From: a virus
Lineage: Duplodnaviria > Heunggongvirae > Uroviricota > Caudoviricetes
IMG/VR virus record: IMGVR_UViG_2778261231_000003
Length of the DNA stretch: 37,653 nucleotides
Direction: 5' to 3' (one strand)
The position numbers were made by a program, and so were the translations under genes. The notes under the pieces were generated by a model. The model was given only the letters and a program-made list of their open reading frames with translations, was not told the origin of the DNA and made no database searches. Shown here in pieces: positions 1 through 15,762 of this stretch; the first letter of the stretch is position 1, and each line of letters opens with the position of its first letter.

Positions 1-128
1 CCACCGGTGAACTCAGCCCCCACCATGCCCACTGCGTTACCCTGTACCACAACGATTTAACCTGCGAAGCCGACACCCTTGGCAGTTGCGGCTACGTATA
101 CATCGCCATTTACCCCACTCAGAGTTAA
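1..128 (+). CDS. CbeA/YeeU-family antitoxin, C-terminal fragment (5' end lies outside the window)
   Basis: Frame ending at TAA 126-128 reads ...[29 protein letters not shown], matching the conserved C-terminus of CbeA/YeeU/YafW antitoxins (recalled from memory). The toxin gene starts 20 nt downstream. Confidence 0.6.
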
Positions 129-148
129 TTACCTTCACGAGAGTAAAC

Positions 149-490
149 ATGAAAACTTTACCTGCAACAACTCAGCGGGCGGCGAAGCCCTGCCTAGCAC
201 CCGTGGCTGTCTGGCAAATGCTACTGACCCGCCTGCTGAAACAGCACTATGGTCTCACCCTCAACGACACACCGTTCAGTGAGGAACGTGTTATACAGGA
301 ACATATCGATGCCGGAATCACGCTGGCTGATGCCGTGAATTTTCTGGTGGAAAAATACGAACTGGTGCGTATCGACAGGAAGGGATTTAACTGGCAGAAA
401 CAATCCCCTTATCTCCGGGCTGTAGACATTCTGCGAGCACGGCAGGCAACTGGCTTGTTGCGGCAAAGCCGTAACAACGTAGTACGATGA
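149..490 (+). CDS. cbtA: CbtA/YeeV/YkfI-family toxin (type IV toxin-antitoxin toxin)
   Basis: ORF-track product from [14 protein letters not shown]... carries the family motifs [18 protein letters not shown] and IDILRAR. The ATG at 149 (not the in-frame upstream start at 86) is chosen because it follows the antitoxin stop. Confidence 0.8.
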
Positions 491-555
491 ACATTGCGTA
501 CAACCTTCCCGATTTACATTTCTGAACTTCCTCCCTTGTTTACCTATTGCGTAAT

Positions 556-591
556 GCGCCTGCTACTACCCGGCAGGCGCGTTATCTTTTT
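556..591 (+). terminator. Rho-independent terminator downstream of the toxin gene
   Basis: GCGCCTGC (556-563), 9-nt loop, GCAGGCGC (573-580), then GTTATCTTTTT. Confidence 0.5.
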
Positions 592-871
592 ACGGACAAA
601 CAATCATGCAACCAGAAGTTGAAGTATTAACCGATCATAATGAGCTAATTTGTTCGAGCTTTATTGAACACATTGCCAACACATTAAATTTAGGAGTAGT
701 GTACAACTAAACCTGCAGCCAAGGATGTATAGTGAGCGAAGCCCTATCAGGCCTTTTTGGTCAGTAGATAAGATTGATCTTCGTTGATAGAATTTACTTA
801 CACCAGCTGTTACATTAAGATAATTTTTTGGTGGGAGAATGATAAGATCTTACGTAACAATTTGATTTTAA

Positions 872-917
872 TGGTGCCGATAATAGGAGTCGAACCTACG
901 ACCTTCGCATTACGAAT
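872..917 (-). repeat. 46-nt 3' fragment of a tRNA-Thr(CGU) gene (anticodon loop to CCA end): attachment-site remnant, not a functional tRNA
   Basis: Reverse complement of 872-917 is ATTCGTAATGCGAAGGTCGTAGGTTCGACTCCTATTATCGGCACCA (anticodon loop with CGT, T-arm GGTTCGACTCC, acceptor 3' strand, CCA). Sequence 5' of it (918 onward) cannot supply the D-arm or the 5' acceptor strand. Identity to E. coli thrW is from memory. Confidence 0.7.
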
Positions 918-1222
918 TATAAGAATCCGCTTCTAATTCAAAGCATTACCCCATCAACACTGCGCTCACACGTCCCACCACATCAAAACATGTAAAGCCT
1001 TGCAAGCCATTGCGAGGCCTTATGTGTCTCAGTTTTGTCCCACCTTGTATTACGACTTACATAGCCAATGAAGATAAACGTGACGGCAAACGGCGCAGCA
1101 GTCTTCTTTTCCTTCATACTTTCCCCACCCAGCATGCATACCTTTATGCCATAACTGAAGTTTATGTCTGTTATGAGCGAAAAGCAGACATTACACTAAA
1201 TTATTTAGGTTTACTTTTATCA

Positions 1223-2101
1223 TTACATTTCTAATGCTTTTTCTCTGCTAATTGATCCTTCACCATTGCAGGTTCTGCAATCTAATTTTATATTCCTGCA
1301 GTCAGGACAAGTGAATTTTTCATAATTAGAAAGATTCACCTTTGCAGCAATATATCTTTTTACGGATCCCATTCCATTACAGATCGGACAATCTTCTCCC
1401 GCTAAACTGCCTTTTCCATTACATAAAGGGCAAGTTACAGTGGATATCACTTCATTTTCATTTTCATTTTCATAAATAAAATTGTTGAAATTTTGGGCGT
1501 TTATTGTGCTTAGTTGAACTTTTTCAATTTTTTTTATGTGATGTTCAAAATACTTTTTAATTGCCTTCTTAAGATCCTCTTTAGACGATTTCCATTGTTC
1601 TGGTGAGATCCTAATCGATTGAAATCCTTCGTTACTAGTTATTACTGCATCACGCTTGTAAGTAGACTTAATTTTACTTTCCACATAATGAGCTATGTGG
1701 CCATCATACTCGATGCCAATAGCAGCAATCTCAACCAAATCTTGACCAATCCATCTATTTAGTCTAAGGACAAGGTCTATTGCCCAAGGCTGGGCTTTTG
1801 GGTTTATATTGCCAACCTTATACTGAGGCTCGATATAAACAATATGTCCGTTTGGGAATTGACCTTTCAGAGTTATTCGTCGTGGTGAATTTTGAAAACT
1901 ATCGATTTCCAATGGACTAAACTGAGATATGAGGCCGGCAATTACCTCTATCTCAGCCTGAGATGTTTTTTCCACTCCTTGTAAACTAATAAGACCGATA
2001 GCTACTTGACGGTTAGTGGCTGGCTCAATCCTTTTAAATAGTTTCTTCTGATTATTACTAAAATTATTTTTGATAACTTCAAGTGTTTCATCTAGTTCCA
2101 T
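1223..2101 (-). CDS. Predicted endonuclease: Vsr/DUF559-like PD-(D/E)xK core fused to a C-terminal DnaJ-type zinc finger (four CxxCxGxG motifs)
   Basis: ORF-track protein 1223..2110. Core motifs AIDLVL, GIEYDGHIAHY, KRDAVITSNEGFQSIRI follow the D...E-x-DG-x-H...RD...G pattern of Vsr/DUF559 endonucleases. C-terminus has CPLCNGKGS, CPICNGMGS, CPDCRN, CRTCNGEGS. ATG at 2101 preferred over GTG at 2110 because of a GGGTGAG Shine-Dalgarno. AT-rich codon usage. Confidence 0.55.
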   Translation of the reverse strand: MELDETLEVIKNNFSNNQKKLFKRIEPATNRQVAIGLISLQGVEKTSQAEIEVIAGLISQFSPLEIDSFQNSPRRITLKGQFPNGHIVYIEPQYKVGNINPKAQPWAIDLVLRLNRWIGQDLVEIAAIGIEYDGHIAHYVESKIKSTYKRDAVITSNEGFQSIRISPEQWKSSKEDLKKAIKKYFEHHIKKIEKVQLSTINAQNFNNFIYENENENEVISTVTCPLCNGKGSLAGEDCPICNGMGSVKRYIAAKVNLSNYEKFTCPDCRNIKLDCRTCNGEGSISREKALEM

Positions 2102-2233
2102 CTCACCCACTCTATAAACTGATTATCCATATAAACTACATTATCATTTTTAACTGCTCAACATAGATTAACATAGCGCGATGCTAACAGTGTCAACTCC
2201 TGGCACAGGGCTGTTGTTGCAGCCCTGACAACC

Positions 2234-2836
2234 TTAGACTTCAATCGATTCAGAGATCTCTAACACATCATCTACTTCAATACCCAGATAACGGACTGTG
2301 CTTTCCAGTTTCTTATGGCCCAACAGAAGTTGGATCACCCGAAGATTCTTGGTTTTCTTGTAGATCAGGTAAGGTTTTGTTCTTCTCATGGAATGAGTGC
2401 TGTAAAGCGAATCTTCGAGACCAAGCTTTTCTACCCACCCATGAAAAATTCGGTTGTATTGCCGGGTAGATATGAGCTGATTAGTTCCGACCAGAAACCG
2501 AAACAAGAAGTCTTTACTATGCAAATTGCCAAGCATTATCAATGCAGCAACAGCTTCTCTTGTCCCTTTGGTTATCTCAAACTGCACAGGGCTACCGGTT
2601 TTCTGTTGCAGCACCGTAGCTCTGCTTGAAGCAGAGCTACCATATGCAACATCAGATACTTTGAGTTTGACCAGATCACAGCCTCGTAGCTTACTGTCCA
2701 GGGCCATATCGAACTGAGCTAAATCGCGCGTTTTACCTTCCAGTTCAAGCCGGATTCGGATCCCCCAGATATGAGATATCTGAAGTGGTCTTTTTTGGCC
2801 GATGATACGGTCTTTGTTCCACGGTGACGTGTTCAT
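2234..2836 (-). CDS. Short tyrosine recombinase (catalytic domain only, ~200 aa): truncated integrase or FimB/FimE-size recombinase
   Basis: Catalytic signature visible: Arg in LRGCDL, H-x-x-R in HSMRRT, LLGH and Y in VRYLGI. Start at MNTSPW (ATG 2836) preceded by GGAGA; the ORF-track start at 2890 lacks a ribosome-binding site. Confidence 0.65.
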   Translation of the reverse strand: MNTSPWNKDRIIGQKRPLQISHIWGIRIRLELEGKTRDLAQFDMALDSKLRGCDLVKLKVSDVAYGSSASSRATVLQQKTGSPVQFEITKGTREAVAALIMLGNLHSKDFLFRFLVGTNQLISTRQYNRIFHGWVEKLGLEDSLYSTHSMRRTKPYLIYKKTKNLRVIQLLLGHKKLESTVRYLGIEVDDVLEISESIEV

Positions 2837-2872
2837 ACTCAAATCTCCTGCAATGTGGGAGATTTGAGTATG
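2834..2872. promoter_or_regulatory. Perfect 15-bp inverted repeat with 9-bp spacer overlapping the recombinase start codon and Shine-Dalgarno
   Basis: CATACTCAAATCTCC (2834-2848), spacer TGCAATGTG, GGAGATTTGAGTATG (2858-2872). Arms are exact reverse complements. Geometry resembles a recombinase core site or a translation-sequestering hairpin. Confidence 0.5.
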
Positions 2873-3042
2873 GTTGTCCCTTATGAGCAAATCGCAGACG
2901 TAACATCAAGTTCATAGCTACCCTGGAGCACCTTATTATCCTGTATAACGATAAGTTGGGAAGCCAGTGGCCTCACAGTGTCCCCAAGATGGTGGTGTCT
3001 CTGCACCAAAGATGCGCTAGTTCAAATGTTAGTAAATATAAT

Positions 3043-3954
3043 TTATATGTAATCAGGTAGTGAATTCAAAGCCATCACTCTTTCTCTTTCTTTTTCTGTC
3101 ATTTCTCTCATAACAATTTGAGATAGCGCTAATGTTATCTCCTTTGTTTTATTGAAGGCTTCTTTGGTATATGTTTTCCTTCCATACTCAAGTTCATTAA
3201 ATGTCCCCATAATCCATTTGAGATAGAATAATGGGATGGCTAGATCACTTATATCCTGCCATCTCGTAATCGCTTTATATTCATTCCAAAAATAATCCTC
3301 AAAATGCTTATCACAATCACCTTTACACGCATAATAAACCGCTATCACCTCATTTGGTTTGTCATCGTGTATGATCTCTGCATTGCACACAATGCCATCA
3401 TAATTTTCTTCATGATGGTTTTCTATTAAGTCCTTTCCACAACGATCACATTTTATAGGTAAGTACTTATCAAAAATCAAATGCTTGGGTTTTATTTTTT
3501 TATAGCTCTCAGGAAAGTATCTAAGGAGTAGTTTTGAGTAACCAATTCTGACTAAGTGATTTTCAATTAATTTACCATCAAAGAATCGAAAGTCCTTTAT
3601 TTTTCCATTCTCTTTTAATTGCGTCATTCTTGAATTTAAACCACTACTTGGCAGTGTTGAGTAAAATCCAATAAATCCGTCGGCATTGAATCCATCAATA
3701 CGTTCTTGTATATTAATCTCATCCTTTTCTGAAACTGATTTTTTACTTGTTGCATAATGTTTACAGCTAACAAGCCAACGAAATTTATATTTATTTAACT
3801 GACCTTGCAATTGCTCTGTGATTAAAAGATCTTTACCTCCATCTGCACCTCTATCTGGCGCGGATTCAATATAAAAGCCAAGTTCTTCAAGAAAATCACG
3901 GGCAAATGACTCCCAGGCTTCACCGTCACTATCAATTTCAGTAAAGTTAATCAT
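3043..3954 (-). CDS. Predicted Mrr-like (PD-(D/E)xK restriction-endonuclease fold) nuclease domain protein with Cys/His-rich C-terminal region
   Basis: N-terminus EAWESFARDFLEELGFYIESAPDRGADGGKDLLITEQ...FRWLVSCKHY fits the Mrr catalytic-domain pattern (acidic residue, D-x-G-x-D-L, Q/E-x-K). C-terminal part has CDRCGKDL...C...ACKGDCDKH. GGGAG Shine-Dalgarno 9 nt upstream of ATG 3954. Very AT-rich. Confidence 0.55.
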   Translation of the reverse strand: MINFTEIDSDGEAWESFARDFLEELGFYIESAPDRGADGGKDLLITEQLQGQLNKYKFRWLVSCKHYATSKKSVSEKDEINIQERIDGFNADGFIGFYSTLPSSGLNSRMTQLKENGKIKDFRFFDGKLIENHLVRIGYSKLLLRYFPESYKKIKPKHLIFDKYLPIKCDRCGKDLIENHHEENYDGIVCNAEIIHDDKPNEVIAVYYACKGDCDKHFEDYFWNEYKAITRWQDISDLAIPLFYLKWIMGTFNELEYGRKTYTKEAFNKTKEITLALSQIVMREMTEKERERVMALNSLPDYI

Positions 3955-4206
3955 TTGTTAACTCCCAAGCGTTGAGATATTTTTATATCTGTATTGTGGG
4001 CTTATTATAAGCGAATGTAATTATAATATCATACTAACAGACACAACTTCCGCTTCTGGTACATAGCAGACCAGAGACACTGGCGTAAAGCCATGGAGGA
4101 TCGGTGGGAGGAGGTAAAAATCCTCTCATGCAAAAAATACGCAAAATCGATAACAGTTGGAAATCATTCAATACTCGCACTATCGGAAGTTCACCAGCCA
4201 GTCGTA

Positions 4207-4240
4207 GCACGTTCTTGCATACGACGTGGCTACGGGTTTC
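4207..4240 (+). repeat. Direct repeat copy 1 (~34 bp, hairpin-capable), upstream of the GIY-YIG gene
   Basis: GCACGTTCTTGCATACGACGTGGCTACGGGTTTC; near-identical to 5226-5263 apart from 1-2 nt indels. Confidence 0.6.
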
Positions 4241-4331
4241 GAGACCGGTCCAATCATCAAACGAAACATAAAATTAATTCACATTATGAGGAAAAGTATC
4301 TTTTTTATACTATGTAAATTCAAAGGCTTAG

Positions 4332-5201
<870 letters not shown>

Positions 5202-5225
5202 GTCTTTAAGTGATAAGCATAAACC

Positions 5226-5263
5226 GCAGCACGATCTTCTTGCATACGACGTGCTACGGTTTC
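5226..5263 (+). repeat. Direct repeat copy 2, between the GIY-YIG stop and the invertase stop
   Basis: GCAGCACGATCTTCTTGCATACGACGTGCTACGGTTTC; internal inverted repeat AGCACG...CGTGCT. Overlaps the invertase stop codon (5262-5264) by 2 nt. Confidence 0.6.
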
Positions 5264-5816
5264 ATTTATCTCCGACCGGAAACTTCTTATACAGTGTCGA
5301 TATACCAACATCATAGATGATCGCCACCTTCTGGCGAGGAACGCCTGATGCAATTAATCGCCCGGCCTGCGCCCATTGTTCTGGTGTAAGTTTGGGACGA
5401 CGTCCCCCAATTCGTCCCTGTGCGCGAGCAGCTTCCAGTCCAGCTTTTGTTCGTTCAACAATCAGTTCTCGTTCCATTTCAGCCAGGGCACCCATCACAT
5501 GAAAGAAAAAACGCCCCATCGGTGTGCTGGTATCAATAGCATCCGTCAGGCTGCGAAAATTAACGCCACGTTCGCGCAACTCCTCAACCAGAATGACCAG
5601 ATGCCGCATACTACGCCCCAGCCGATCCAGCTTCCAGACAACCAGAGTGTCACCTGCCGATAATGTCCTGAGCAGTTTTTTCAGTCCCGGCCTTTCGGAC
5701 TTTGTACCGCTTATCTTGTCTTCAAAAATCAGCTCGCATCCTGCACAGTTCAGCGCATTACGTTGTAGATCTGTGTTCTGGTCATTTGTTGACACACGTA
5801 CATAGCCAATAAGCAT
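5262..5816 (-). CDS. Serine recombinase, DNA invertase of the Pin/Gin/Hin/Cin family
   Basis: N-terminus MLIGYVRVSTNDQNTDLQRNAL matches Pin/Gin invertases (from memory) and includes the catalytic serine; C-terminal HTH GVPRQKVAIIYDVGISTLYKK. GGGAGA Shine-Dalgarno upstream. Confidence 0.85.
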   Translation of the reverse strand: MLIGYVRVSTNDQNTDLQRNALNCAGCELIFEDKISGTKSERPGLKKLLRTLSAGDTLVVWKLDRLGRSMRHLVILVEELRERGVNFRSLTDAIDTSTPMGRFFFHVMGALAEMERELIVERTKAGLEAARAQGRIGGRRPKLTPEQWAQAGRLIASGVPRQKVAIIYDVGISTLYKKFPVGDK

Positions 5817-5912
5817 GGTAGATCTCCCTGACTGATTAGACTTGAGATAAATGACAGGGGATAAGTGAGATAATTATGGGAAGTACTGGGTCAACATGGG
5901 AAGAGACTGGAT

Positions 5913-5993: not shown

Positions 5994-6383
5994 TTACTCC
6001 TTTTTCCCTGTATCGGCATCAGGTTCGCCATCAAACAGTTTGCCCTGCATCCGATCCAGTTCTTCTTTTCTGACCCGCTTCACCACGCTGTAAACCCACT
6101 GTAGTGAAACACCAAATTTGCGGGCCAGTTCGTGATGGTTGCGCCCGTCAAACTCCAGGAAAATTTCCCGGTCGCGCTGGCTGACCTTCCAGACCATGCC
6201 CATCGGAAAATAGACGTTTTGCCCACCCCAGACCTGCATCATGCGGTTCGCGACGGCCTGACCAATCTGGTCGGCAACTGCGGGTTCGATATCAATAATC
6301 TCGCGGACAGTCTCAGAGGTATGCTGTGCCAGTTCCACCAACAGTTCCGGCCCTTTACTACGAAACTGATTCAGGTCGCTCAT
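5994..6383 (-). CDS. Mor/C-family transcription activator
   Basis: GGQNVYFP and C-terminal HTH ELARKFGVSLQWVYSVVKRVR align with Mu Mor (from memory). ATG 6383 has a GGGAG Shine-Dalgarno and overlaps the GemA stop (ATGA); 129 aa. Confidence 0.8.
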   Translation of the reverse strand: MSDLNQFRSKGPELLVELAQHTSETVREIIDIEPAVADQIGQAVANRMMQVWGGQNVYFPMGMVWKVSQRDREIFLEFDGRNHHELARKFGVSLQWVYSVVKRVRKEELDRMQGKLFDGEPDADTGKKE

Positions 6384-6808
6384 TGCTTCACTCCCGCAGC
6401 TCTGCGCTGCCACTTCTTCAGTTTCTCAATCACGCTACTTGCCTGCTCATTGCTGAGCCAGCGTAACGCGCTGATGCCGGTTTCCCGTTTAACCCACAGC
6501 GCCAGCGCCTGCTCTGAACTGTCACGGACGATGCCTGCGGCAGCCATTTCAAGCCATAGCGCACGGATTTTCTTTGACTGCGGATGGCTGTCGAGCGGTA
6601 AGCCGGACTTGGCTTTCCCGGCAGGCTTAATGCGAAAGCCTTTCTTTTTCATTGATTCCAGCACGCGGTTTAGCTGTGGGGTATCCATCCCTTTGGTTGA
6701 GGCTTTGCCGGTCAGCCCCTGTAGCATCTGGCGGTAGGTGTCCTCATCCATCTGGAGGTCGCTGCGGGCAATATGAATGAGTTGAATAAGACGCTGCTTA
6801 GTCATCAT
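6380..6808 (-). CDS. GemA-like protein (Mu gp16 family, DUF1018)
   Basis: MMTKQRLIQLIHIARSDLQMDEDTYRQMLQGLTGKAS is the typical GemA N-terminus. Start at 6808 preceded by GGAG and overlapping the upstream stop; the ORF-track extension to 6997 lacks support. Confidence 0.7.
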   Translation of the reverse strand: MMTKQRLIQLIHIARSDLQMDEDTYRQMLQGLTGKASTKGMDTPQLNRVLESMKKKGFRIKPAGKAKSGLPLDSHPQSKKIRALWLEMAAAGIVRDSSEQALALWVKRETGISALRWLSNEQASSVIEKLKKWQRRAAGVKQ

Positions 6809-7013
6809 TGCCACTCCTTTTACCTGCGCCACCGATATAGTCGACATATAAAGGAAGCGCGACAGGCCAGCACAGGAACATAACGGCCCAACTGATCCAG
6901 TGTCCGGTACCGCTGTAACGTGAGTAAAACCCTGAACGGCGGTGCAGTTCAGCAGTACACCACCCCACGAGACCATACCAGAACAAGGCACATACAATTG
7001 ATTCAGCCATCAT
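6798..7013 (-). CDS. Small membrane protein (hypothetical, early operon)
   Basis: 71 aa with two hydrophobic segments; translationally coupled to neighbours. Confidence 0.5.
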   Translation of the reverse strand: MMAESIVCALFWYGLVGWCTAELHRRSGFYSRYSGTGHWISWAVMFLCWPVALPLYVDYIGGAGKRSGNDD

Positions 7014-7699
7014 AAGCCACTCCCCAGCTTCCGCTGTTCCTGCCCGCTGACAGGCTGATGTAGACGGACGTTTTCTCCCTCTCTGTAACCGATGTGGCGG
7101 GACATGTCCGCGTCACGGGATTTACCGGCTTTGCGGCCAGAGGTTGTTCCTGAATCAGGGTATTTTTGTTCAAGCCAGAGGTTTGCCAGCTCCCGTTCTT
7201 CGCGGGACATAGCAAATAAATGAACCTCACTACGCACGGCCAGAACCCATCCTTCGGCAAATTTGTCACCACGGCTGGTCTTGGTCGTGTTTTTGATTCT
7301 TTTATTCTGCTGTCGAATATAGTTTTTACGGGCCATGATTAACTGTCTGGCCAGTACCTCCCATGTATATGAGGCCAGTTCAACCCGGTCTTTATTACCG
7401 TAAAAGCCAACGCCGGGTTTAAAGCCGGAGTGAATAATAGACTTAACGCCAAATGCCACCTGGATAATATCCAGCAGACCCAGCATATAACGCGGCGGAT
7501 TAACGCTACCTGCAGCCCAGTAGTTACTGACGCTTTCATCAATATCACTGAGTGCGAGGTCAGCCTGGGTGATGTTATAGGCCTGCATCAGTTTCTGGGC
7601 GCGTTGCAGTGCCAGTGCCGCTTCATGGGGGTTATCGGATTTAGCCAGCGCAAGTAGCTTTTTTAACTTCTCCAGCAGCTTTTCATTATTCTGCGGCAT
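7010..7699 (-). CDS. DUF2786-like early protein
   Basis: N-terminus LLEKLKKLLALAKSDNPHEAALALQRAQKLMQAYNI is the DUF2786-type motif; GGGGGTG Shine-Dalgarno. Confidence 0.6.
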   Translation of the reverse strand: MPQNNEKLLEKLKKLLALAKSDNPHEAALALQRAQKLMQAYNITQADLALSDIDESVSNYWAAGSVNPPRYMLGLLDIIQVAFGVKSIIHSGFKPGVGFYGNKDRVELASYTWEVLARQLIMARKNYIRQQNKRIKNTTKTSRGDKFAEGWVLAVRSEVHLFAMSREERELANLWLEQKYPDSGTTSGRKAGKSRDADMSRHIGYREGENVRLHQPVSGQEQRKLGSGL

Positions 7700-7982
7700 A
7701 AGTCACCCCCAGGCGTTCGGCAAGGCGTTCCAGCTTTTTCTGCTTATGAAAATCAATCATCAGGCCCATCCCGTTTAGGCGGAACTGTTCAATCATGATT
7801 TCAACGTCAGCCAGTTCGCCTGCCAGATCAACTTCATTGCCCAGTCCGTTCATGTTGCGGGCAGCAGCAGCGGCCAGTTCGGCAGCTTCTTCCATCAGCT
7901 TCAGAGCCTGAGCTTCTGGGCCGAAGGTTTTGAGGGCCAGATTGTAGATCGTCGAACGGTTATATAATTTCATGCCTTTCAT
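7686..7982 (-). CDS. MazG-like nucleoside triphosphate pyrophosphohydrolase domain protein (small, all-alpha)
   Basis: KLMEEAAELAAAA ... LAGELADVEIMIEQF matches the EE-x-x-E / E-L-x-D paired acidic motifs of MazG-type NTP-PPases. 98 aa. Confidence 0.45.
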   Translation of the reverse strand: MKGMKLYNRSTIYNLALKTFGPEAQALKLMEEAAELAAAAARNMNGLGNEVDLAGELADVEIMIEQFRLNGMGLMIDFHKQKKLERLAERLGVTYAAE

Positions 7983-7997
7983 CTTATCTTCCCCAAA

Positions 7998-8270
7998 TCA
8001 ATGGCGTGATACGCTGATAACTTTCACGTGGCCGTCCTCAGTAATTTCCAGCTCGTACAGCGGCGGCATTTTTCTCAGGTGGTCACTGGTGGCGTGAAGA
8101 ACGTAAATGGCCTGATCTAGGCCATTTGTTGCTACGATGGCGTGTGAAGCCATGCTGATTAATTTGATTAATACCTGCCGGATATGGTTGGGATTTTCAC
8201 AACCACATTCACTGATATATTCCGCGACAATTTCACGGGTCCGTTTTTCGGCTTCTTTTGCAGTAATCAT
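7998..8270 (-). CDS. Hypothetical early protein
   Basis: 90-aa ORF with GAGG Shine-Dalgarno, coupled to upstream gene. Confidence 0.5.
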   Translation of the reverse strand: MITAKEAEKRTREIVAEYISECGCENPNHIRQVLIKLISMASHAIVATNGLDQAIYVLHATSDHLRKMPPLYELEITEDGHVKVISVSRH

Positions 8271-8455
8271 TTCTTTGCCTCACAAGGGATGAATTCCATG
8301 GCCGGGACTTCGGTGTAGTAATGCTGGCTACAGTGTGGGCATACCAGCGTGATGAGGACGGCTGGTACGCGGTACTTACCGGAGGAAATGACGCTGGCGT
8401 CGCTGAACTTCAGGGTGGTGATACCTTTCTGGCAGTTGATACATTTGATGGACAT
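8267..8455 (-). CDS. Small zinc-ribbon protein (two CxxC pairs)
   Basis: MSIKCINCQ ... VCPHCSQH; AAGGA Shine-Dalgarno. Confidence 0.5.
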   Translation of the reverse strand: MSIKCINCQKGITTLKFSDASVISSGKYRVPAVLITLVCPHCSQHYYTEVPAMEFIPCEAKK

Positions 8456-8533
8456 GATTTATTCCTTAATGCTGTTTTCGGCGTGTAGAAGCCCACGGCA
8501 CTGACGCCGAAATAAAAAGAAATTGAATTAAAA

Positions 8534-9145
8534 TTAAATGGCAGCGATATCTAACGGAATATTAATTAGCTTCCCGTGTTTATCTTTCTCCCGGAAATTA
8601 ATATAGGTTTTGGACATTGCCACCTGCAGTGATTCCGATATGGCCTCCATTGCCCGGTTCCAGCGCTCGTCCTGAATCTTGACGCGGCGCAGGGAAAGAA
8701 TACGTCCGGTATTAAGCTGGCCCTCTTTGTCCACCTGAAAAGCATCGCTGATGATGGCCCGCAGGTTGGCGTTCGCGCCTTCCGACCACTCGGTGACGCA
8801 CTCGTCTATCAGGTCTTTGGCAATCTGCAGCTCTGGCCCGAAGGTCAGGGTTTCCTGCACGCGGATGGTGATCTGCTGAGCACCGTCGAAGCTGCTGAAG
8901 GTCACGTTGCCTTTGGCACCGCCACGCGTTCTGCCGTACTTCTCGGCCACAAGGTCAAGCCAGGCATAGCACTCGTCAAAGGCACGACGCTTGAAGTCAC
9001 TGAGTTCATCGCGTTTAACCTTCGCGGCGACAACCTGTTCTTTAACGAAAGAGTCCATCGCAAGGTCATAGTCAGACACCTGGTCAACCGGCACCAGACG
9101 CCCCTTGCGGTCTTTCATGTAGTTTTCTTTATTTACTTCGCTCAT
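8534..9145 (-). CDS. DUF3164-like early protein
   Basis: 203 aa, AAGGTGA Shine-Dalgarno; position and composition as in Mu-like early regions. Family call from memory. Confidence 0.55.
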   Translation of the reverse strand: MSEVNKENYMKDRKGRLVPVDQVSDYDLAMDSFVKEQVVAAKVKRDELSDFKRRAFDECYAWLDLVAEKYGRTRGGAKGNVTFSSFDGAQQITIRVQETLTFGPELQIAKDLIDECVTEWSEGANANLRAIISDAFQVDKEGQLNTGRILSLRRVKIQDERWNRAMEAISESLQVAMSKTYINFREKDKHGKLINIPLDIAAI

Positions 9146-9162
9146 CTCTGTTCACCTTATGG

Positions 9163-9432
9163 TTAATGTAACGACTCTGACCAGGTAATACGGCAGCCAT
9201 GCAACTCAAAGACACCCTGACGGAAGCGCCCTGAGCCGTCATGGCCAACATGGGTATAACTCGCTTTGCCCTGCTCCAGCAGGCGGGCACAGTGCCCGTT
9301 GCGGGCGATACGGATAACCGGCTTACTGCCAGCAATCATGACGCTCTGCACGGTAGTGTTCATGGCGTTGAGCGCCATAATGGCGGACTGCACCTTGTTC
9401 ATCTGCTGGTTGATATCGGCGATGGATTTCAT
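9163..9432 (-). CDS. Hypothetical early protein
   Basis: 89 aa, AAGGAG Shine-Dalgarno, immediately downstream of the B-like gene. Confidence 0.5.
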   Translation of the reverse strand: MKSIADINQQMNKVQSAIMALNAMNTTVQSVMIAGSKPVIRIARNGHCARLLEQGKASYTHVGHDGSGRFRQGVFELHGCRITWSESLH

Positions 9433-9434
9433 GC

Positions 9435-10601
9435 TTAAACTCCTTTGACGACGTCGGCGTTGACCTGCGGGACCCCGATTTCAGCAGCCAGATTCATGGC
9501 GGCTATCACCAGGTTACTGACGGCCAGCGGATACAGCAGGCTGACCATGCTTTTACGGCTACTACCCAGATTGCTCAGACGGGCGCGGATGGCTTCCACT
9601 GCGCTGGCGTCCATGATGTCGGCCAGCTGCTTACCGGCACGTTGCAGTTTGAACGTCAGAAACTCTTCGAGGCTGTTGTCCAGCGGCAGCAATTCAACCA
9701 ACTCGCAGCGCTGGACGACCTCACGGACTTCCATGTTGCGTTCGGACAGTTTGTCCGCCAGTTCAGGCTGGCCAATCAGCACGATGGACAGCAGTTTTTT
9801 GAAGCCGGACTCCAGTTCGAAGAAGCGTTTAAGGTGCTTCAGCGTCGGAATGGGAAGGCTGTGGGCCTCCTCAATCACCAGAACGTGGCTGAAACCCGCC
9901 TGACTGCTGTCCTTCAGGACTCGGTGCAACTGGCGGAAGCGGGCGTCCTGGCTGCGTTTGATACTCTCCAGCGGCGCGATGGTGCTGATGATGGCCTCGG
10001 CGATAGCTGCCGCCTTCAGGGTTTTGCCCTTCACGTCGTTGTCTTCCATGGCGATGATGTATGGCTCGATTACAATCACCGGCGCGTTCTCGCGGTTGAC
10101 GCGTTCAATCAGGTCGCGGCGCAGCGTGGATTTACCCGCACCGGACTCGCCGATAACCGCCAGAAAGCCACCATGGCGGGCGGTCTGGAACAGCGCCTCA
10201 CGCACGTAGCGGATATCCGGCGTGGTGAACACATCGTCCGCGCCCTGCATGGCTTCATCGGCGAACGGATCACGGAAAAGGCCAAACGCTTTTTTGGTTG
10301 CTGGAAATAACACCTGCTTTTTGAGTAACATGTTCTCTTCCTCACTGAGGTTGGTTTTATCGGTAGTACCCGCTGTACGGGGCGTGACAGCGCCCTGTGC
10401 AGCATCAAAACTTTTCACTGTATCAATCCCCTTACTTTCCAGATACAACGCCAGACGCTGGCGTACCTCTTCGGGGCTGGTGCGTGGCCACTCGTTATGG
10501 TTCACAATCTGGGCCAGCGTGGCCTCGGAAACGGCGACGGCTCTTGCCACCACCGCCTGCGGGATGCGGGCCTCTTTCAGTTGTTGCTTCAGTACCAGCA
10601 T
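9435..10601 (-). CDS. Transposition ATPase / target-DNA activator (Mu B-like AAA+ protein)
   Basis: N-terminal HTH region, Walker A GESGAGKST, downstream acidic Walker B-like stretch; sits directly after the transposase gene; GAGGAGG Shine-Dalgarno. Confidence 0.8.
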   Translation of the reverse strand: MLVLKQQLKEARIPQAVVARAVAVSEATLAQIVNHNEWPRTSPEEVRQRLALYLESKGIDTVKSFDAAQGAVTPRTAGTTDKTNLSEEENMLLKKQVLFPATKKAFGLFRDPFADEAMQGADDVFTTPDIRYVREALFQTARHGGFLAVIGESGAGKSTLRRDLIERVNRENAPVIVIEPYIIAMEDNDVKGKTLKAAAIAEAIISTIAPLESIKRSQDARFRQLHRVLKDSSQAGFSHVLVIEEAHSLPIPTLKHLKRFFELESGFKKLLSIVLIGQPELADKLSERNMEVREVVQRCELVELLPLDNSLEEFLTFKLQRAGKQLADIMDASAVEAIRARLSNLGSSRKSMVSLLYPLAVSNLVIAAMNLAAEIGVPQVNADVVKGV

Positions 10602-10611
10602 GCCTTCCTCC

Positions 10612-12381
10612 TCAGTTACCGTTAACGATGCTGATAACGCTGTTGCGGGCCGGAGTGGTCAGGGTAACCATCACCTCATCCAGCGCGGCTTCAGGTACGC
10701 CATCCGGGTACTGCGCCGTTAACTGGCGGTAATGTTCCGGCGTCCAGATATGGCCGTTAGCGCCAAACTTCTCGCGCAGGGCTTTCGCCGCCTCCACATG
10801 GGTCAGCGGACGCTGCTCAATACGCGGCCCGCGCACGTCTGAAGCCTGACCGCGCTTCGGCATATAGGCCGGAAGCGTGGTGTCGTCGATATGTTTGTAC
10901 GGGTCAAGTCGCCCGCCGAACGGCAGCGCCTTCGCCTTGCGTGCAGCAGCTGCATCGGTGGCGTTATCGGTGCCCGTAACCAGCTCTTCGATTTCTTTTG
11001 CCGCCGTCTGCGCCGGGGTCTCCGGCAGGGCTTTGTAGTTTTCGCCAAATACCGCCGCGTTTTCGGCAAAGCCGAACTCGTTCTTTCTGACCTCCTCGAC
11101 CAGGAAGAACGTCTCGTGACCGTCCTCACCGGTCAGCACCACCTGCGCCACATCGCTGCGCCACGGGTTACGGGTAATCATCAGTTTTTCGCCGACCAGT
11201 ACGCCCGGTACCGTCGAAACGTCAAACTCATTGCCCCGGAACGAGACGCGCAGTTTTGGTGTGACCTTACGGAGTTCCGGTGCGGCCACCGCCAGTTCGC
11301 GGCAAACCTCAACGGATGGCGCTTTTTTCAGCTGGTCAGCAGTAATCTTCAGCCAGATATCCGTGCGGGTTTTACCGTGGCGGCTGTGGACCGCCGTGGC
11401 GTTAAAGTGGCTGCGCCATTTCACCGCCAGTGCGTTCAGTTCGTCCAGGCTATGAACCGGCTGGAATTTGAGACCCGGCTCCAGTTTACGTTCGATAATG
11501 TCACGGGCCTTTTCCACCTGCCCGGTGGCGCGGGCGTTATGCGGCTTGTGCGCTATCAGATTGATGCCCAGCGAGCGGCACATGTTTTTCGTCATGCCAG
11601 CGGTGTTCGCCGAACCGGGATCAAGGTAGAGTATTTTCGGCACGCCGTGCAGCACGTCCGCGCCGCCGCGCTCCTGCATGGCGTTGATAAGCACAGAACA
11701 GAGGTTCTCACCAGATTCCGCACCCATCACGTACTCAACGTAAATCCAGCCGCTGGTATGGTCGGTAATCTCGTAACTCCACACGCGGTCACTGGCGATG
11801 CGGGCGATGTTGGCAGGCTTGTTCTTGTAGAACTTCGAGCTGTCCATCACCTGCAACCCTTTATGGCCGTTGCTCAGGTAGTAAAGCGTACAAAGTGAGG
11901 CATCAATCTCCCAGACGTGATTGGGATGCAGGCTGGCCATCTCGGACGACGGGGCCGGTGCGTCAAGCTGTTCCGGGTGCAGACCATAGTTCCGCAGGGC
12001 GCGGCTGATGGTGTCCTCGGACAGCGGGAAAAACTCGCCTGTGGCCTCGTCCGTTCTGCCAGCAGTGATAAAGCCGTTTGACCGCAGGGTCTCCACCGCA
12101 TCCGCGATGGAATACAGGCGCTTACCGTTCTTACGGGTGGCCTCGCGCAGCGTGGCAGATATCAGCGCGGCTTCGTCGCGGCTCAGGGCACTGCGCCCGG
12201 CATCGGCGCGTTTTTTACGTTTGTCAGTCACTGATACCTCCTTCAGCTTGCGCAGCAGGGTGGCGCGGGAAATGCCCAGTTCGGCGCAGGCGGCATCATA
12301 TATCGCACCACGCTTACCATGCCCCGCGTCACGTGCCGCGCGGGCAACATAAACCAGTCGTTCAGTCAGGGCGGCACTCAT
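10612..12381 (-). CDS. DDE transposase (phage transposase A; rve/integrase-core type)
   Basis: 589 aa, N-terminal HTH, central integrase-core-like region (HPNHVWEIDAS...); AGGAGG Shine-Dalgarno; upstream of the B-like ATPase as in transposable phages. Confidence 0.8.
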   Translation of the reverse strand: MSAALTERLVYVARAARDAGHGKRGAIYDAACAELGISRATLLRKLKEVSVTDKRKKRADAGRSALSRDEAALISATLREATRKNGKRLYSIADAVETLRSNGFITAGRTDEATGEFFPLSEDTISRALRNYGLHPEQLDAPAPSSEMASLHPNHVWEIDASLCTLYYLSNGHKGLQVMDSSKFYKNKPANIARIASDRVWSYEITDHTSGWIYVEYVMGAESGENLCSVLINAMQERGGADVLHGVPKILYLDPGSANTAGMTKNMCRSLGINLIAHKPHNARATGQVEKARDIIERKLEPGLKFQPVHSLDELNALAVKWRSHFNATAVHSRHGKTRTDIWLKITADQLKKAPSVEVCRELAVAAPELRKVTPKLRVSFRGNEFDVSTVPGVLVGEKLMITRNPWRSDVAQVVLTGEDGHETFFLVEEVRKNEFGFAENAAVFGENYKALPETPAQTAAKEIEELVTGTDNATDAAAARKAKALPFGGRLDPYKHIDDTTLPAYMPKRGQASDVRGPRIEQRPLTHVEAAKALREKFGANGHIWTPEHYRQLTAQYPDGVPEAALDEVMVTLTTPARNSVISIVNGN

Positions 12382-12384
12382 GGG

Positions 12385-13293
12385 TTATGCCTCCTGCCCG
12401 TTAATCTCTGGCGTCGGGTCAGTCAGCCATGAAGGGGCGGCGTTGCCTGTCGGCTCGTCCGGCAGGTCAAATGTGGAGCGTAGGCTACGCGCGGTGCTTT
12501 CCAACTGGCAGACCAGACCGGCCATAAAGTCTCTGGGGGTATCAATCATATTTTCAGCACAGTATGCGCACAGGGTCTCAAAGGCGCTGGACAGTCGAAC
12601 GGCGATGGCAGATTCCGCCTCAACCGCTAACGCTGTAACTTCCGCACGCAGCTTCTTCACCTCTTCGTCAGGCTTGGGCGGCTGGATACGGGATTTCTTC
12701 TCCAGTTTTGTGGAGAGCGAGTCGATTTTTTCGTTTTTGTCGGCAAGCACGCGCTGTTGTGCTGCGTTGGTTTCGCGGGCTTCACGTAGGGCTTGACGCA
12801 ATTCTCTACAGCTCATGCGGTCGACATCATCTAGTTTCAGACCCGCTACAGTGCCACCATCAGCCAGTTCAGCGAGAGATTCATCATCTTCAGTCATCAA
12901 TTCAAAAAGTTTGGATTTACCCAAATGTGCCAACGTTGGCACATTTGATTTCAGTGCGGGGGATAAGTATTTAGTCGATGCTTGCATCATCCGCACAGAA
13001 GTTCGGTATGGTAAGCCCAACTCATTTTCAAGAATGTTAATAAATTCCCCGTGCGGCTCATTTTCTTTAAGAATTACAAGGCGCTTACCTGCTTCCAGCA
13101 TCGCCTCAGCACTCTGTGCCATATAAAACCGTGTTTCGTGAACAATACGATCACGTTCATACGGCAGACCATCACCGAACTGCTGCATGATTTCGAGGCG
13201 ATGTTCGGTCATGGCATTAAGACTAACGTTGAGGCCATCACTCAGCGGAGCATCTTCCATTAGTTCAACTGGTTGTGATTTTGTGCGTCCCAT
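12385..13293 (-). CDS. DUF3102-like early protein
   Basis: 302 aa with central coiled-coil; AAGGAG Shine-Dalgarno. Family call from memory. Confidence 0.55.
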   Translation of the reverse strand: MGRTKSQPVELMEDAPLSDGLNVSLNAMTEHRLEIMQQFGDGLPYERDRIVHETRFYMAQSAEAMLEAGKRLVILKENEPHGEFINILENELGLPYRTSVRMMQASTKYLSPALKSNVPTLAHLGKSKLFELMTEDDESLAELADGGTVAGLKLDDVDRMSCRELRQALREARETNAAQQRVLADKNEKIDSLSTKLEKKSRIQPPKPDEEVKKLRAEVTALAVEAESAIAVRLSSAFETLCAYCAENMIDTPRDFMAGLVCQLESTARSLRSTFDLPDEPTGNAAPSWLTDPTPEINGQEA

Positions 13294-13302
13294 TTCAACT
13301 CC

Positions 13303-13608
13303 TTAGCGACTACCAGCCATAACACGCTGGTTGATTTCATTAATACGATCCTGCGCCCGCGCCATTTCGGTACTGTGCGCCATGGCGATTTGTAAGAGCT
13401 GGACTCCAGGGGCAAAACGCCCGTTATCCAGTTTCAGGGCCAGTCCTTCTTCGATAAGGGTATTGAGCGCCCGATTGATATTCGCCGGGGACTCGCCCAG
13501 AGCTGACGCCAGCTCGCCGTTAGAAACACCGTTCAGAGCGTGACCGCGTAAAGCCTTAAGGACACGCAAAATACGGGTACCTGAGCTTGATGTATTTGGT
13601 TTACTCAT
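13303..13608 (-). CDS. Small winged-helix DNA-binding protein (IclR-type N-terminal HTH)
   Basis: TRILRVLKAL...GVSNGELASALGESPANINRALNTLIEEGL; AAGGAGG Shine-Dalgarno; start overlaps the Ner-like stop (ATGA). Confidence 0.55.
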   Translation of the reverse strand: MSKPNTSSSGTRILRVLKALRGHALNGVSNGELASALGESPANINRALNTLIEEGLALKLDNGRFAPGVQLLQIAMAHSTEMARAQDRINEINQRVMAGSR

Positions 13609-13835
13609 GACGCCTCCTTGAGGATGCCGGGGGTAACTTCTTTGCCTATTGCGACCGAAAGGTCTCGCAAAATCCGATAAGTCAAACGACCGCGTGGAAG
13701 TTCGCTTTTGCCTGCCCAGCGGCTGACAGCCTGGGTGACTGTTCGTGGCTCATAGCCCGCGTTAAGCGCGAACTGGCGCAAGCTACTGCCTCTTTCAACC
13801 AGCCGTGCCCGAACTTGTTGTTTGTTCATATGCAC
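13605..13835 (-). CDS. Ner-like DNA-binding protein
   Basis: ~75-aa protein with SLRQFALNAGYEPRTVTQAVSR HTH, divergent from the repressor. True start may be ATG 13829 rather than GTG 13835. Confidence 0.7.
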   Translation of the reverse strand: MHMNKQQVRARLVERGSSLRQFALNAGYEPRTVTQAVSRWAGKSELPRGRLTYRILRDLSVAIGKEVTPGILKEAS

Positions 13836-13917
13836 CGTGTTCCTGTTGGGTTATGATGTACTCTATTGGGTCTATTGTACGCACCCGAACGGGTATGTCA
13901 AATTGAGATATGTTCAA

Positions 13918-14328
13918 ATGAGTATAAAAGAGAGATTGCGCGAAGCGATGGATGCTAAGAGTCTGACAATTAAGGCATTGTCAGACTTGTCAAAAATTCC
14001 ATATCGCTCACTTCAAAACTATCTGCGTGGAGAGAGAGAACCTAATGCAGAGGCTCTTGTTGCGCTAAGCACCCATTTGAACATATCAATAGATTGGCTA
14101 CTTACTGGTAAAGGGGAAGCTGTTGGGGTAGAGAAAGCACAGCCAGCTAATCAGGAGCAGCATTTCAACCAGTCTGATCTGAAGTTATTGGAGCTGCTCA
14201 ACCAACTGGAGCCAGAGGTGCGAAAAGAGTTGCTGCGAGGCGCTGAGGAAAAACAGCGAATGATTGATATGGAAAAACAGCTTAAGGAGCTGTCCGCAGC
14301 GTTCGAAAGATTAAAAAATACGGGTTAA
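13918..14328 (+). CDS. XRE-family HTH repressor (phage c-type repressor candidate)
   Basis: LTIKALSDLSKIPYRSLQNYLRGEREPNAEALVALSTHLNISIDWLLTG is a Cro/cI-type HTH. No S24 peptidase domain. The 5' part of ORF-track 13822 lies in the operator region, so ATG 13918 is used. Confidence 0.7.
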   Translation: MSIKERLREAMDAKSLTIKALSDLSKIPYRSLQNYLRGEREPNAEALVALSTHLNISIDWLLTGKGEAVGVEKAQPANQEQHFNQSDLKLLELLNQLEPEVRKELLRGAEEKQRMIDMEKQLKELSAAFERLKNTG

Positions 14329-14363: not shown

Positions 14364-14897
14364 ATGACTATGCGCAAATTATTTTTACCGTTGATATTTG
14401 TTTTATCTGGGTGTGGAGATAATACCGATCCTGCTGATACGTCCACCACAGCTAAGGAGCACGCGGTTTTTAGCGTTGAAACAGATAATCCGGTTGTAAA
14501 TCGCGAATTACCGTTTATTCGCCAACAACTCCCCGGCCTGGATAAGTACGCGGACAGTTTTGAAAAAGTCGAAGTATCCGAGGATAGCGAACGTCCGGTG
14601 ACAACGGTGCAGTTTCATATTAAAGACGAAAATAATATTCCAAGTGACTACATAGCCTCTGGTCATAATTGTTATTTGTTCATATCAAATAATGCCCACG
14701 AAGTGAAAATATCTAAATCAGCATGTCAGGCTGTTTTTTTCGATAAAACGGATGTTCCTGGTGGAGACCTGACCGTGAAACTTGATAAGGAAAAAGTTCC
14801 TATGACAGATGATGGTAAGACCCCGCGAGCAGGTTGTTTGAAAGCTTATTCACCAGAGCCAGATAATGATTATTGGACTTGTCCAAGGCAGGATTAA
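14364..14897 (+). CDS. Lipoprotein (possible moron / superinfection-exclusion candidate)
   Basis: Signal peptide with lipobox LSGC (MTMRKLFLPLIFVLSGCG); AAGGA Shine-Dalgarno; lower GC than surrounding phage genes (by eye). Confidence 0.65.
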   Translation: MTMRKLFLPLIFVLSGCGDNTDPADTSTTAKEHAVFSVETDNPVVNRELPFIRQQLPGLDKYADSFEKVEVSEDSERPVTTVQFHIKDENNIPSDYIASGHNCYLFISNNAHEVKISKSACQAVFFDKTDVPGGDLTVKLDKEKVPMTDDGKTPRAGCLKAYSPEPDNDYWTCPRQD

Positions 14898-14944: not shown

Positions 14945-15715
14945 TCAAAAATTACAAATTACCAGCTCTTTCTTCGGGCTGGGTTTGCCTGTTACCTTAA
15001 GGTTGTAGCTGATATCAACCGACTGCATGTTCAGACCGTTGAATACCTGCCGCATTTCCGGGATATCGTTCACTGATATAATCATCTTCCCTTTGATCCT
15101 TCGCGCTAAATCTGCCATGTGATCATAGTTTTCCAGCCCGAACTCCACACCATAGCCTTCCGTTCCCCAGTACGGTGGGTCACAGTAGAACAGCGTATGC
15201 GGGCGATCATATCGCTCTATGCACTGGTGCCAGTCCAGATGCTCTATCAGCGTTCTCGACAGGCGCAGGTGTGCCATCGACAGTTCTTCCTCAATACGCA
15301 GCAAATTGAAGCGCGGCGCACTGGTTGTAGAGGTACCGAATGTGTGATCGGCGACCTTGCCGCCAAATGCCTGTTTCTGCAGGTAGTAGAACCGGGCCGC
15401 CCGCTGAATGTCGGTGAGCGTTTCTTCCGGCGTATCCTGCAACCATTTGTAAATCTGACGGCTGACCAGCGCCCATTTGAACTGGCGAATAAATTCTTCC
15501 AGATGATGCTTGACCACCCGATAGAGGTTCACCAGTTCCCCGTTGATATCGTTAATGACTTCGGTCTTGCTGGGAGTCTTTAGGAAATAGAGCGCAGCTG
15601 CCCCGCAGAACGGCTCCACATAGCAGGTATGGGCCGGAAACAATGGTAAAATATGCTTCGCCAGACGACGTTTACCGCCAATCCATGGGACGATGGGTAA
15701 AGATTGTTCTTTCAT
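14945..15715 (-). CDS. Dam-like N6-adenine DNA methyltransferase (D12 class)
   Basis: EPFCGAAALYF (AdoMet motif) and FYCDPPY catalytic motif. ATG 15715 preferred over TTG 15739. Confidence 0.8.
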   Translation of the reverse strand: MKEQSLPIVPWIGGKRRLAKHILPLFPAHTCYVEPFCGAAALYFLKTPSKTEVINDINGELVNLYRVVKHHLEEFIRQFKWALVSRQIYKWLQDTPEETLTDIQRAARFYYLQKQAFGGKVADHTFGTSTTSAPRFNLLRIEEELSMAHLRLSRTLIEHLDWHQCIERYDRPHTLFYCDPPYWGTEGYGVEFGLENYDHMADLARRIKGKMIISVNDIPEMRQVFNGLNMQSVDISYNLKVTGKPSPKKELVICNF

Positions 15716-15762
15716 TATCCGTAAGCCTTTTGCAATCAATGAAAATATGGCAGGCTAGTCTG

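Follow-up and report, generated by a model that had tools for sequence, protein, structure and literature searches.

MazG-type enzymes are nucleoside triphosphate (NTP) pyrophosphohydrolases (NTP-PPases) marked by the signature EExxE-x(12-28)-ExxD, and their single-domain representatives are dimers or tetramers in which acidic residues hold a water-activating Mg2+. The solved single-domain ('type 1') set comprises Sulfolobus SSO12199 (1vmg), a Bacillus enzyme (5ie9), B. subtilis YpjD (2gta), iMazG from the Vibrio DAT722 integron (2q73/2q5z) and Archaeoglobus AF1178 (4qgp). Phages encode MazG-type enzymes that act on deoxynucleoside triphosphate (dNTP) pools, such as MazG of cyanophage S-PM2 and MazZ of cyanophage S-2L (PDB 7ody), the latter feeding the 2-aminoadenine pathway together with PurZ. 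Their known substrates are very different: the S-PM2 enzyme works best on dGTP and dCTP and, despite an earlier proposal, does not hydrolyse guanosine tetra- or pentaphosphate, (p)ppGpp (PMC6850273), whereas the MazG-like Atd1 from Pectobacterium phage PcCB7V is a ppGpp hydrolase with a Michaelis constant (Km) of ~50 uM that protects from TIR-STING toxicity (bioRxiv 10.1101/2022.06.09.495361). Here we analyze a MazG-like gene in a stretch of 37,653 nucleotides (hereafter the window, meaning the whole of this DNA; IMG/VR record IMGVR_UViG_2778261231_000003) from a virus of the Caudoviricetes, in which the gene lies in the early operon of a Mu-like transposable prophage. The evidence supports its 98-residue product as a single-domain MazG-type protein at the level of the MazG/HisE/dimeric-dUTPase superfamily, and we consider it probable that this is an active NTP-PPase acting on the nucleotide pool.

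The protein, whose full sequence is MKGMKLYNRSTIYNLALKTFGPEAQALKLMEEAAELAAAAARNMNGLGNEVDLAGELADVEIMIEQFRLNGMGLMIDFHKQKKLERLAERLGVTYAAE, contains an EEAAE motif (residues 31-35) and an ELAD motif (residues 56-59) separated by 20 residues. The paired acidic motifs reported in the initial annotation are thus borne out. A search of 200,000 composition-matched shuffles recovered the pattern EE..E.{12,28}E..D in only 0.34% of them. In profile searches against the PDB, the weak matches of which were used for motif alignment only, the first motif aligned with EEMGE of the Bacillus enzyme 5ie9 and the second with EELGD of 5ie9 and EEIGD of YpjD (2gta). In solved MazG enzymes the acidic set equivalent to E31, E32, E35, E56 and D59 binds the catalytic Mg2+, and the 98-residue protein possesses the metal-binding signature of the all-alpha NTP-PPase superfamily. 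Conservation was assessed in an alignment of 81 diverse relatives (A2), 23-51% identical to the query and drawn from a large profile search, in which G21, Q25, E31, E35, E56 and D59 are shared by every sequence and conservation reaches 90% or more at E32, K83 and R86. K83 and R90 are invariant in alignment A1, and R86 is again conserved in at least 90% of the sequences. We infer that K83, R86 and R90, which give the C-terminal helix a conserved basic face, are a candidate phosphate- (triphosphate-) binding surface.

Profile searches recovered a significant full-length match to the PHROG family phrog_2245, annotated as nucleoside triphosphate pyrophosphohydrolase (E=4.7e-31, 109.3 bits, residues 4-96 against profile positions 116-210 of 218), and three further MazG-like or NTP-PPase PHROGs were detected with E-values of 1.6e-5 to 3e-3. 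The only Pfam matches, PRA-PH (E=0.0013) and MazG (E=0.093), both fall across the motif region. Furthermore, a scan of the 81 relatives gave a Pfam MazG match at E<=0.01 for 21 of them (best 4.2e-8), which ties the subfamily to MazG by transitivity, and a PRA-PH match for just 4. An AlphaFold2 model built from a 29-sequence alignment (mean predicted local distance difference test score, pLDDT, 93.6; predicted template modelling score, pTM, 0.78) shows helices at 9-44, 50-70 and 73-90. The modelled protein is accordingly an all-alpha bundle, as the initial annotation had proposed, with the predicted helical-bundle fold of the NTP-PPase superfamily. Foldseek searches of the PDB with this model placed Bacillus MazG (5ie9), iMazG, human DCTPP1 and AF1178 in the first ranks with probabilities of 0.92-0.97, and HisE was also among the best solved-structure matches. 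Against BFVD, 10 of the 12 best matches were phage proteins that bear the name NTP pyrophosphohydrolase or NTP-PPase; the top one reached a template modelling (TM) score of 0.80 (E=3.5e-5), and scores extended up to 0.82 within the top twelve.

Several results weigh against this assignment. The Pfam scores remain under the gathering cut-offs for both MazG (PF03819, 13.5 bits against 22) and PRA-PH (PF01503, 19.6 against 21.3), the NCBIfam scan returned nothing other than a far sub-threshold hit to the HisE model TIGR03188 (15.8 bits against 42.7), and no NCBIfam model covers the subfamily when the 81 relatives are scanned. Sequence and profile searches of the PDB recovered solved MazG chains weakly (E 0.009-1), amid designed helical repeat proteins, and the Foldseek matches in the PDB have E-values of only ~0.1 and TM scores of ~0.5. 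In addition, no assayed member of the subfamily was found in the literature. The fold match alone is not decisive, because of those Foldseek E-values; taken together, the fold match, the invariant motif and the PHROG match are decisive for the MazG-type call. The family assignment made in the initial annotation thus holds in the PHROG match, the invariant motif, the structural matches and the RefSeq name, and falls short at the Pfam and NCBIfam cut-offs. A search with family models, by which that annotation would have stood or fallen, gives an answer that depends on the library, positive with PHROGs and negative at the curated cut-offs.

RefSeq, JGI and PHROGs already carry the domain call publicly. 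RefSeq lists the identical protein as WP_001569383.1, which NZ_OZ510750.1 labels 'nucleoside triphosphate pyrophosphohydrolase family protein' but which is a 'hypothetical protein' in most of the other E. coli records, and two close relatives bear the JGI label 'NTP pyrophosphatase (non-canonical NTP hydrolase)'. As there is no NCBIfam model for the subfamily, the RefSeq name is not traceable to its source. A separate 94-residue protein from an ENA metagenome (P0074), with a precomputed PF01503 match, is identical to the MazG-like protein over its first 37 residues and continues into a HisE-like C-terminus; it is probably a chimera of assembly or gene calling.

The closest relatives among named proteins are the members of PHROG 2245 and the phage NTP-PPases of BFVD (UniProt A0A8S5UYQ2, A0A8S5TW21), which constitute the direct family with TM scores of 0.8 and 30-34% identity. 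Both families are known from annotation only, we found no biochemical data for them, and many of their members have unrelated N-terminal extensions that are absent from the 98-residue protein. Identity to the solved type 1 proteins is just 16-27%, and in the AlphaFold2 monomer the first and second helices are merged into a single continuous one (9-44) that passes through the conserved G21-P22 instead of forming a helix-turn-helix. The substrates of the solved type 1 enzymes differ among themselves, and therefore none of them predicts that of the 98-residue protein. E. coli MazG (3cra) differs in its 263 residues and two tandem MazG domains, and is 15% identical to the window protein, which has a single domain over its 98 residues. 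S-2L MazZ appears at Foldseek rank 47 with weak similarity (TM 0.39), and no PurZ-like gene was seen among the early genes annotated in the window.

The open reading frame (ORF) runs on the minus strand from an ATG at 7982-7980 to a TAA at 7688-7686, which agrees exactly with the span and approximate length of 98 residues first reported for it and places it on the minus strand. It is tightly packed into the operon, having a Shine-Dalgarno-like site, a gap of 15 nucleotides from the stop codon of the upstream 90-residue ORF (8000-7998) to its ATG, and a 14-nucleotide overlap with the downstream DUF2786/DUF7168 gene, which suggests translational coupling within the early operon. Comparison with the orthologues of five related viral contigs gave ratios of nonsynonymous to synonymous substitution rates (dN/dS) of 0.02-0.25, and the frame is therefore under purifying selection. 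The MazG-like ORF is a real, selected and conserved gene.

Pfam scans of the neighbours identify the surroundings as a Mu-like transposable prophage with its early operon on the minus strand (Table 1). The setting among 'semi-essential' early genes that the initial annotation had described is upheld by the transposase, MuB-like ATPase, GemA and Mor genes on the same strand.

Table 1. The MazG-like gene, its sequence elements and the neighbouring genes (window positions; HTH, helix-turn-helix)
Feature	Positions	Strand	Remarks
HTH (Ner-like) gene	13303-13608	minus	Pfam; first in transcription order
DUF3102 gene	12385-13293	minus	Pfam
DDE transposase	10612-12381	minus	Pfam
MuB-like AAA ATPase	9435-10601	minus	Pfam
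89-residue ORF	9163-9432	minus	
DUF3164 gene	8534-9145	minus	Pfam
62-residue zinc-ribbon ORF	8267-8455	minus	
90-residue ORF	7998-8270	minus	no Pfam match
Shine-Dalgarno-like GGGGAAG	7994-7988	minus	5 nucleotides 5' of the MazG-like ATG; read from sequence
MazG-like coding sequence, 98 residues	7686-7982	minus	single domain, all-alpha NTP pyrophosphohydrolase superfamily
E31-E32-A-A-E35 codons, first metal-binding motif (EExxE)	7878-7892	minus	long helix; sequence
E56-L-A-D59 codons, second metal-binding motif (ExxD)	7806-7817	minus	second helix; sequence
K83..R86..R90 codons, conserved basic face	7713-7736	minus	C-terminal helix; alignments A1 and A2
Overlap of MazG-like 3' end and DUF2786/DUF7168 gene start, 14 nucleotides	7686-7699	minus	ORF coordinates; Pfam
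DUF2786/DUF7168 gene	7010-7699	minus	Pfam; directly after the MazG-like gene
GemA	within 6380-6997	minus	Pfam
Mor	5994-6413	minus	Pfam; last in transcription order
CI-type repressor	13822-14328	plus	

The same DNA is present in 24 of 5,426 complete E. coli genomes, as well as in Escherichia phage Phi06_2974 B and Klebsiella phage KP12, and Escherichia phage PhiKM encodes a counterpart that is 72% identical at the protein level. The gene order DUF3164, MazG-like, GemA, Mor is kept in about 22 viral contigs (46-99% identity), and it holds even where the partner genes are just ~37-40% identical to those of the window. Matches of the Mu-like type, counted as one genome per species, came from Xenorhabdus, Kluyvera, Raoultella, Klebsiella, Erwinia, Edwardsiella and Apirhabdus. 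Mu-like prophages of Enterobacterales thus keep the MazG-like gene at one fixed place in their early accessory region. Members at 35-45% identity have no detectable Mu-like genes in their contigs, and their hosts include Clostridia/Oscillospiraceae, gut Alphaproteobacteria, Bdellovibrionaceae, Chryseobacterium and one haloarchaeon. A search of 1.84 billion cluster representatives (50%-identity clusters) with a profile of 29 relatives and no word index recovered 15,377 proteins with E<=1e-3, of which 6,325 had E<=1e-10; many of the representatives have unrelated N-terminal extensions and a few have two tandem MazG-like domains (e.g. P0089, P0106). The subfamily is a widespread, mostly phage-borne branch of MazG, of which the Mu-like prophages hold one conserved lineage.

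The 90-residue ORF directly upstream has no tblastn match in the related viral contigs L002-L081, including the two closest, L002 and L003, in which the zinc-ribbon ORF adjoins the MazG-like gene directly (L002 159-637, L003 7816-8294); its position has the look of a site of variable insertion within the early operon. In the databases, P0018 and P0024 were called as fusions of this zinc-ribbon ORF with the MazG-like gene, and some distant relatives (P0082, P0084) have an N-terminal zinc ribbon, that of P0084 matching Pfam Lar_restr_allev at 22.8 bits, below the cut-off of 28.6. Of 161 loci, 16 have a CxxC...CxxC ORF upstream of the MazG-like gene or joined to it in a fusion (L004-L007, L012, L082 and L084 are among the loci with the association), as compared with ~3% of background ORFs. 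We rejected the zinc-ribbon ORF as an obligate or general partner, as the enrichment is mild and derives largely from related Mu-like prophages.

The early operon (5994-13608) is directed leftward, away from the repressor gene, while the holin, lysis and late genes lie on the plus strand in the region that runs rightward from 13822. The early and late regions are therefore divergent in this prophage, unlike the collinear arrangement of phage Mu, and the layout presumably resembles that of Pseudomonas phage B3. A 177-residue ORF (14364-14897) with no Pfam match follows the repressor gene, and a D12-class N6-adenine DNA methyltransferase (14945-15739, minus) lies between this ORF and the holin gene. 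Homology with an E. coli chromosome that bears the same prophage elsewhere (L001) begins at window position 5833, at TGATTAGAC, which starts with TG. Position 5833 is probably the left end of the prophage, with Mor as its outermost gene. The integrase gene that the element interrupts in L001, that of a P2-like prophage, is annotated as a truncated pseudogene. The host-side flank (1-5832) of the window encodes a phage-type integrase (2234-2890), a protein with an Mrr-type restriction endonuclease domain (3043-3954), a GIY-YIG (LEM-3-like) protein (4377-5201), a serine resolvase/invertase (5262-5816) and a protein with sub-threshold DnaJ-CXXCXGXG and REase_MTES_1575 matches (1223-2110). This flank looks like another mobile or defence island, in or beside which the Mu-like prophage inserted.

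By analogy with other MazG proteins of ~100 residues, the window protein would assemble into a dimer or tetramer. Its acidic residues would bind Mg2+, activating water for attack on the alpha-beta phosphoanhydride bond, and the K83/R86/R90 face would probably hold the substrate phosphates, so that a nucleoside triphosphate or related nucleotide would be converted to the monophosphate and pyrophosphate. The early promoter would drive the gene together with those of the transposase and MuB-like ATPase, and from this joint expression we propose that the enzyme acts during replicative transposition. Its most likely role is the trimming or cleaning of the nucleotide pool, the candidate substrates being dUTP, a damaged dNTP, another unwanted or non-canonical NTP or dNTP, an analogue made by a defence system, or an alarmone.

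A narrower version of this proposal, in line with a role suggested in the initial annotation, is that the protein serves counter-defence or host takeover in the manner of Atd1 and would clear (p)ppGpp, an immune nucleotide or a toxic analogue such that abortive infection is not triggered during transposition. Atd1 itself, as a phage MazG-like ppGpp hydrolase that protects from TIR-STING toxicity (bioRxiv 10.1101/2022.06.09.495361), provides the precedent, and the two proteins share a small, phage-encoded, single-domain MazG/HisE-like architecture with twin acidic motifs. Early expression from the 'semi-essential' accessory region, where Mu-like phages keep host-interaction genes, and the sub-threshold Lar-like (restriction-alleviation) zinc ribbon of some distant relatives point in the same direction. 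However, the probable Atd1 ORF shares only the generic motif. By our own assignment this is QQG33500.1 (86 residues), the only MazG/HisE-like ORF of PcCB7V near a nucleotidyltransferase gene, from which it is two genes away; it has 15 residues between the motifs, where the window protein has 20, and belongs to a lytic Vequintavirinae genome, where the gene considered here is part of a Mu-like early operon. Orthology with Atd1 was rejected, as hhalign of the A2 family profile against QQG33500.1 gave a probability of 0.2%. PcCB7V was not among the tblastn matches in the phage collection, a search which returned 7 records only at E<=10 and whose low-complexity filter probably lowers sensitivity on this Ala-rich query. 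Moreover, the cyanophage MazG neither binds nor hydrolyses (p)ppGpp (PMC6850273), and the window holds no link between the MazG-like gene and a specific defence system. We regard this reading as unlikely, an estimate that applies to it as a specific sub-case. The same low expectation attaches to its broader form, namely that the early-expressed MazG-type enzyme of Mu-like phages destroys a host anti-phage nucleotide and is the founding, conserved member of a counter-defence module, the target of which may be a second-messenger nucleotide, a chain terminator of the kind that viperin makes or, in common with Atd1, (p)ppGpp.

It is less probable still that the protein is a non-catalytic helical regulator or binding partner of MazG descent or likeness, or that the acidic motif arose by chance in an Ala/Glu/Leu-rich helix. 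The biased composition (15 Ala, 14 Leu and 11 Glu per 98 residues), the designed repeat proteins among the weak PDB matches and the scores under the Pfam thresholds would favor such an explanation, but the metal-ligand positions are invariant or nearly so across the 81 relatives in spite of their divergence, the motif is rare in shuffles, PHROG 2245 is matched strongly, and NTP-PPases are over-represented among the structural neighbours. Finally, an auxiliary histidine-biosynthesis enzyme, that is, a HisE-type phosphoribosyl-ATP pyrophosphatase, is very improbable and was rejected on its score, the TIGR03188 value being far below the cut-off, and on gene context, as the neighbours are Mu-like early genes with no his genes nearby, the relatives match Pfam MazG far more often than PRA-PH, and the family is phage-borne across many phyla.

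As things stand, the active NTP-PPase that we favor is of little significance in itself, since phages often carry MazG-like genes and the protein itself already has its RefSeq name and falls in an annotated PHROG. What was not obvious beforehand is the fixed slot of the gene in Mu-like prophages and the existence of a very large, phage-associated subfamily, most of which escapes the curated models of Pfam and NCBIfam. If the counter-defence module were real, it would protect replicative transposition, and the subfamily of ~15,000 clusters, often fused to zinc ribbons, Lar-like ones included, would represent a widespread phage anti-defence family. A substrate screen would be informative because phage MazG enzymes are known to differ so widely in what they hydrolyse (ppGpp in the case of Atd1, dGTP and dCTP in that of the cyanophage enzyme), and the preferred substrate of this easily expressed 98-residue protein would give a function to thousands of phage genes.
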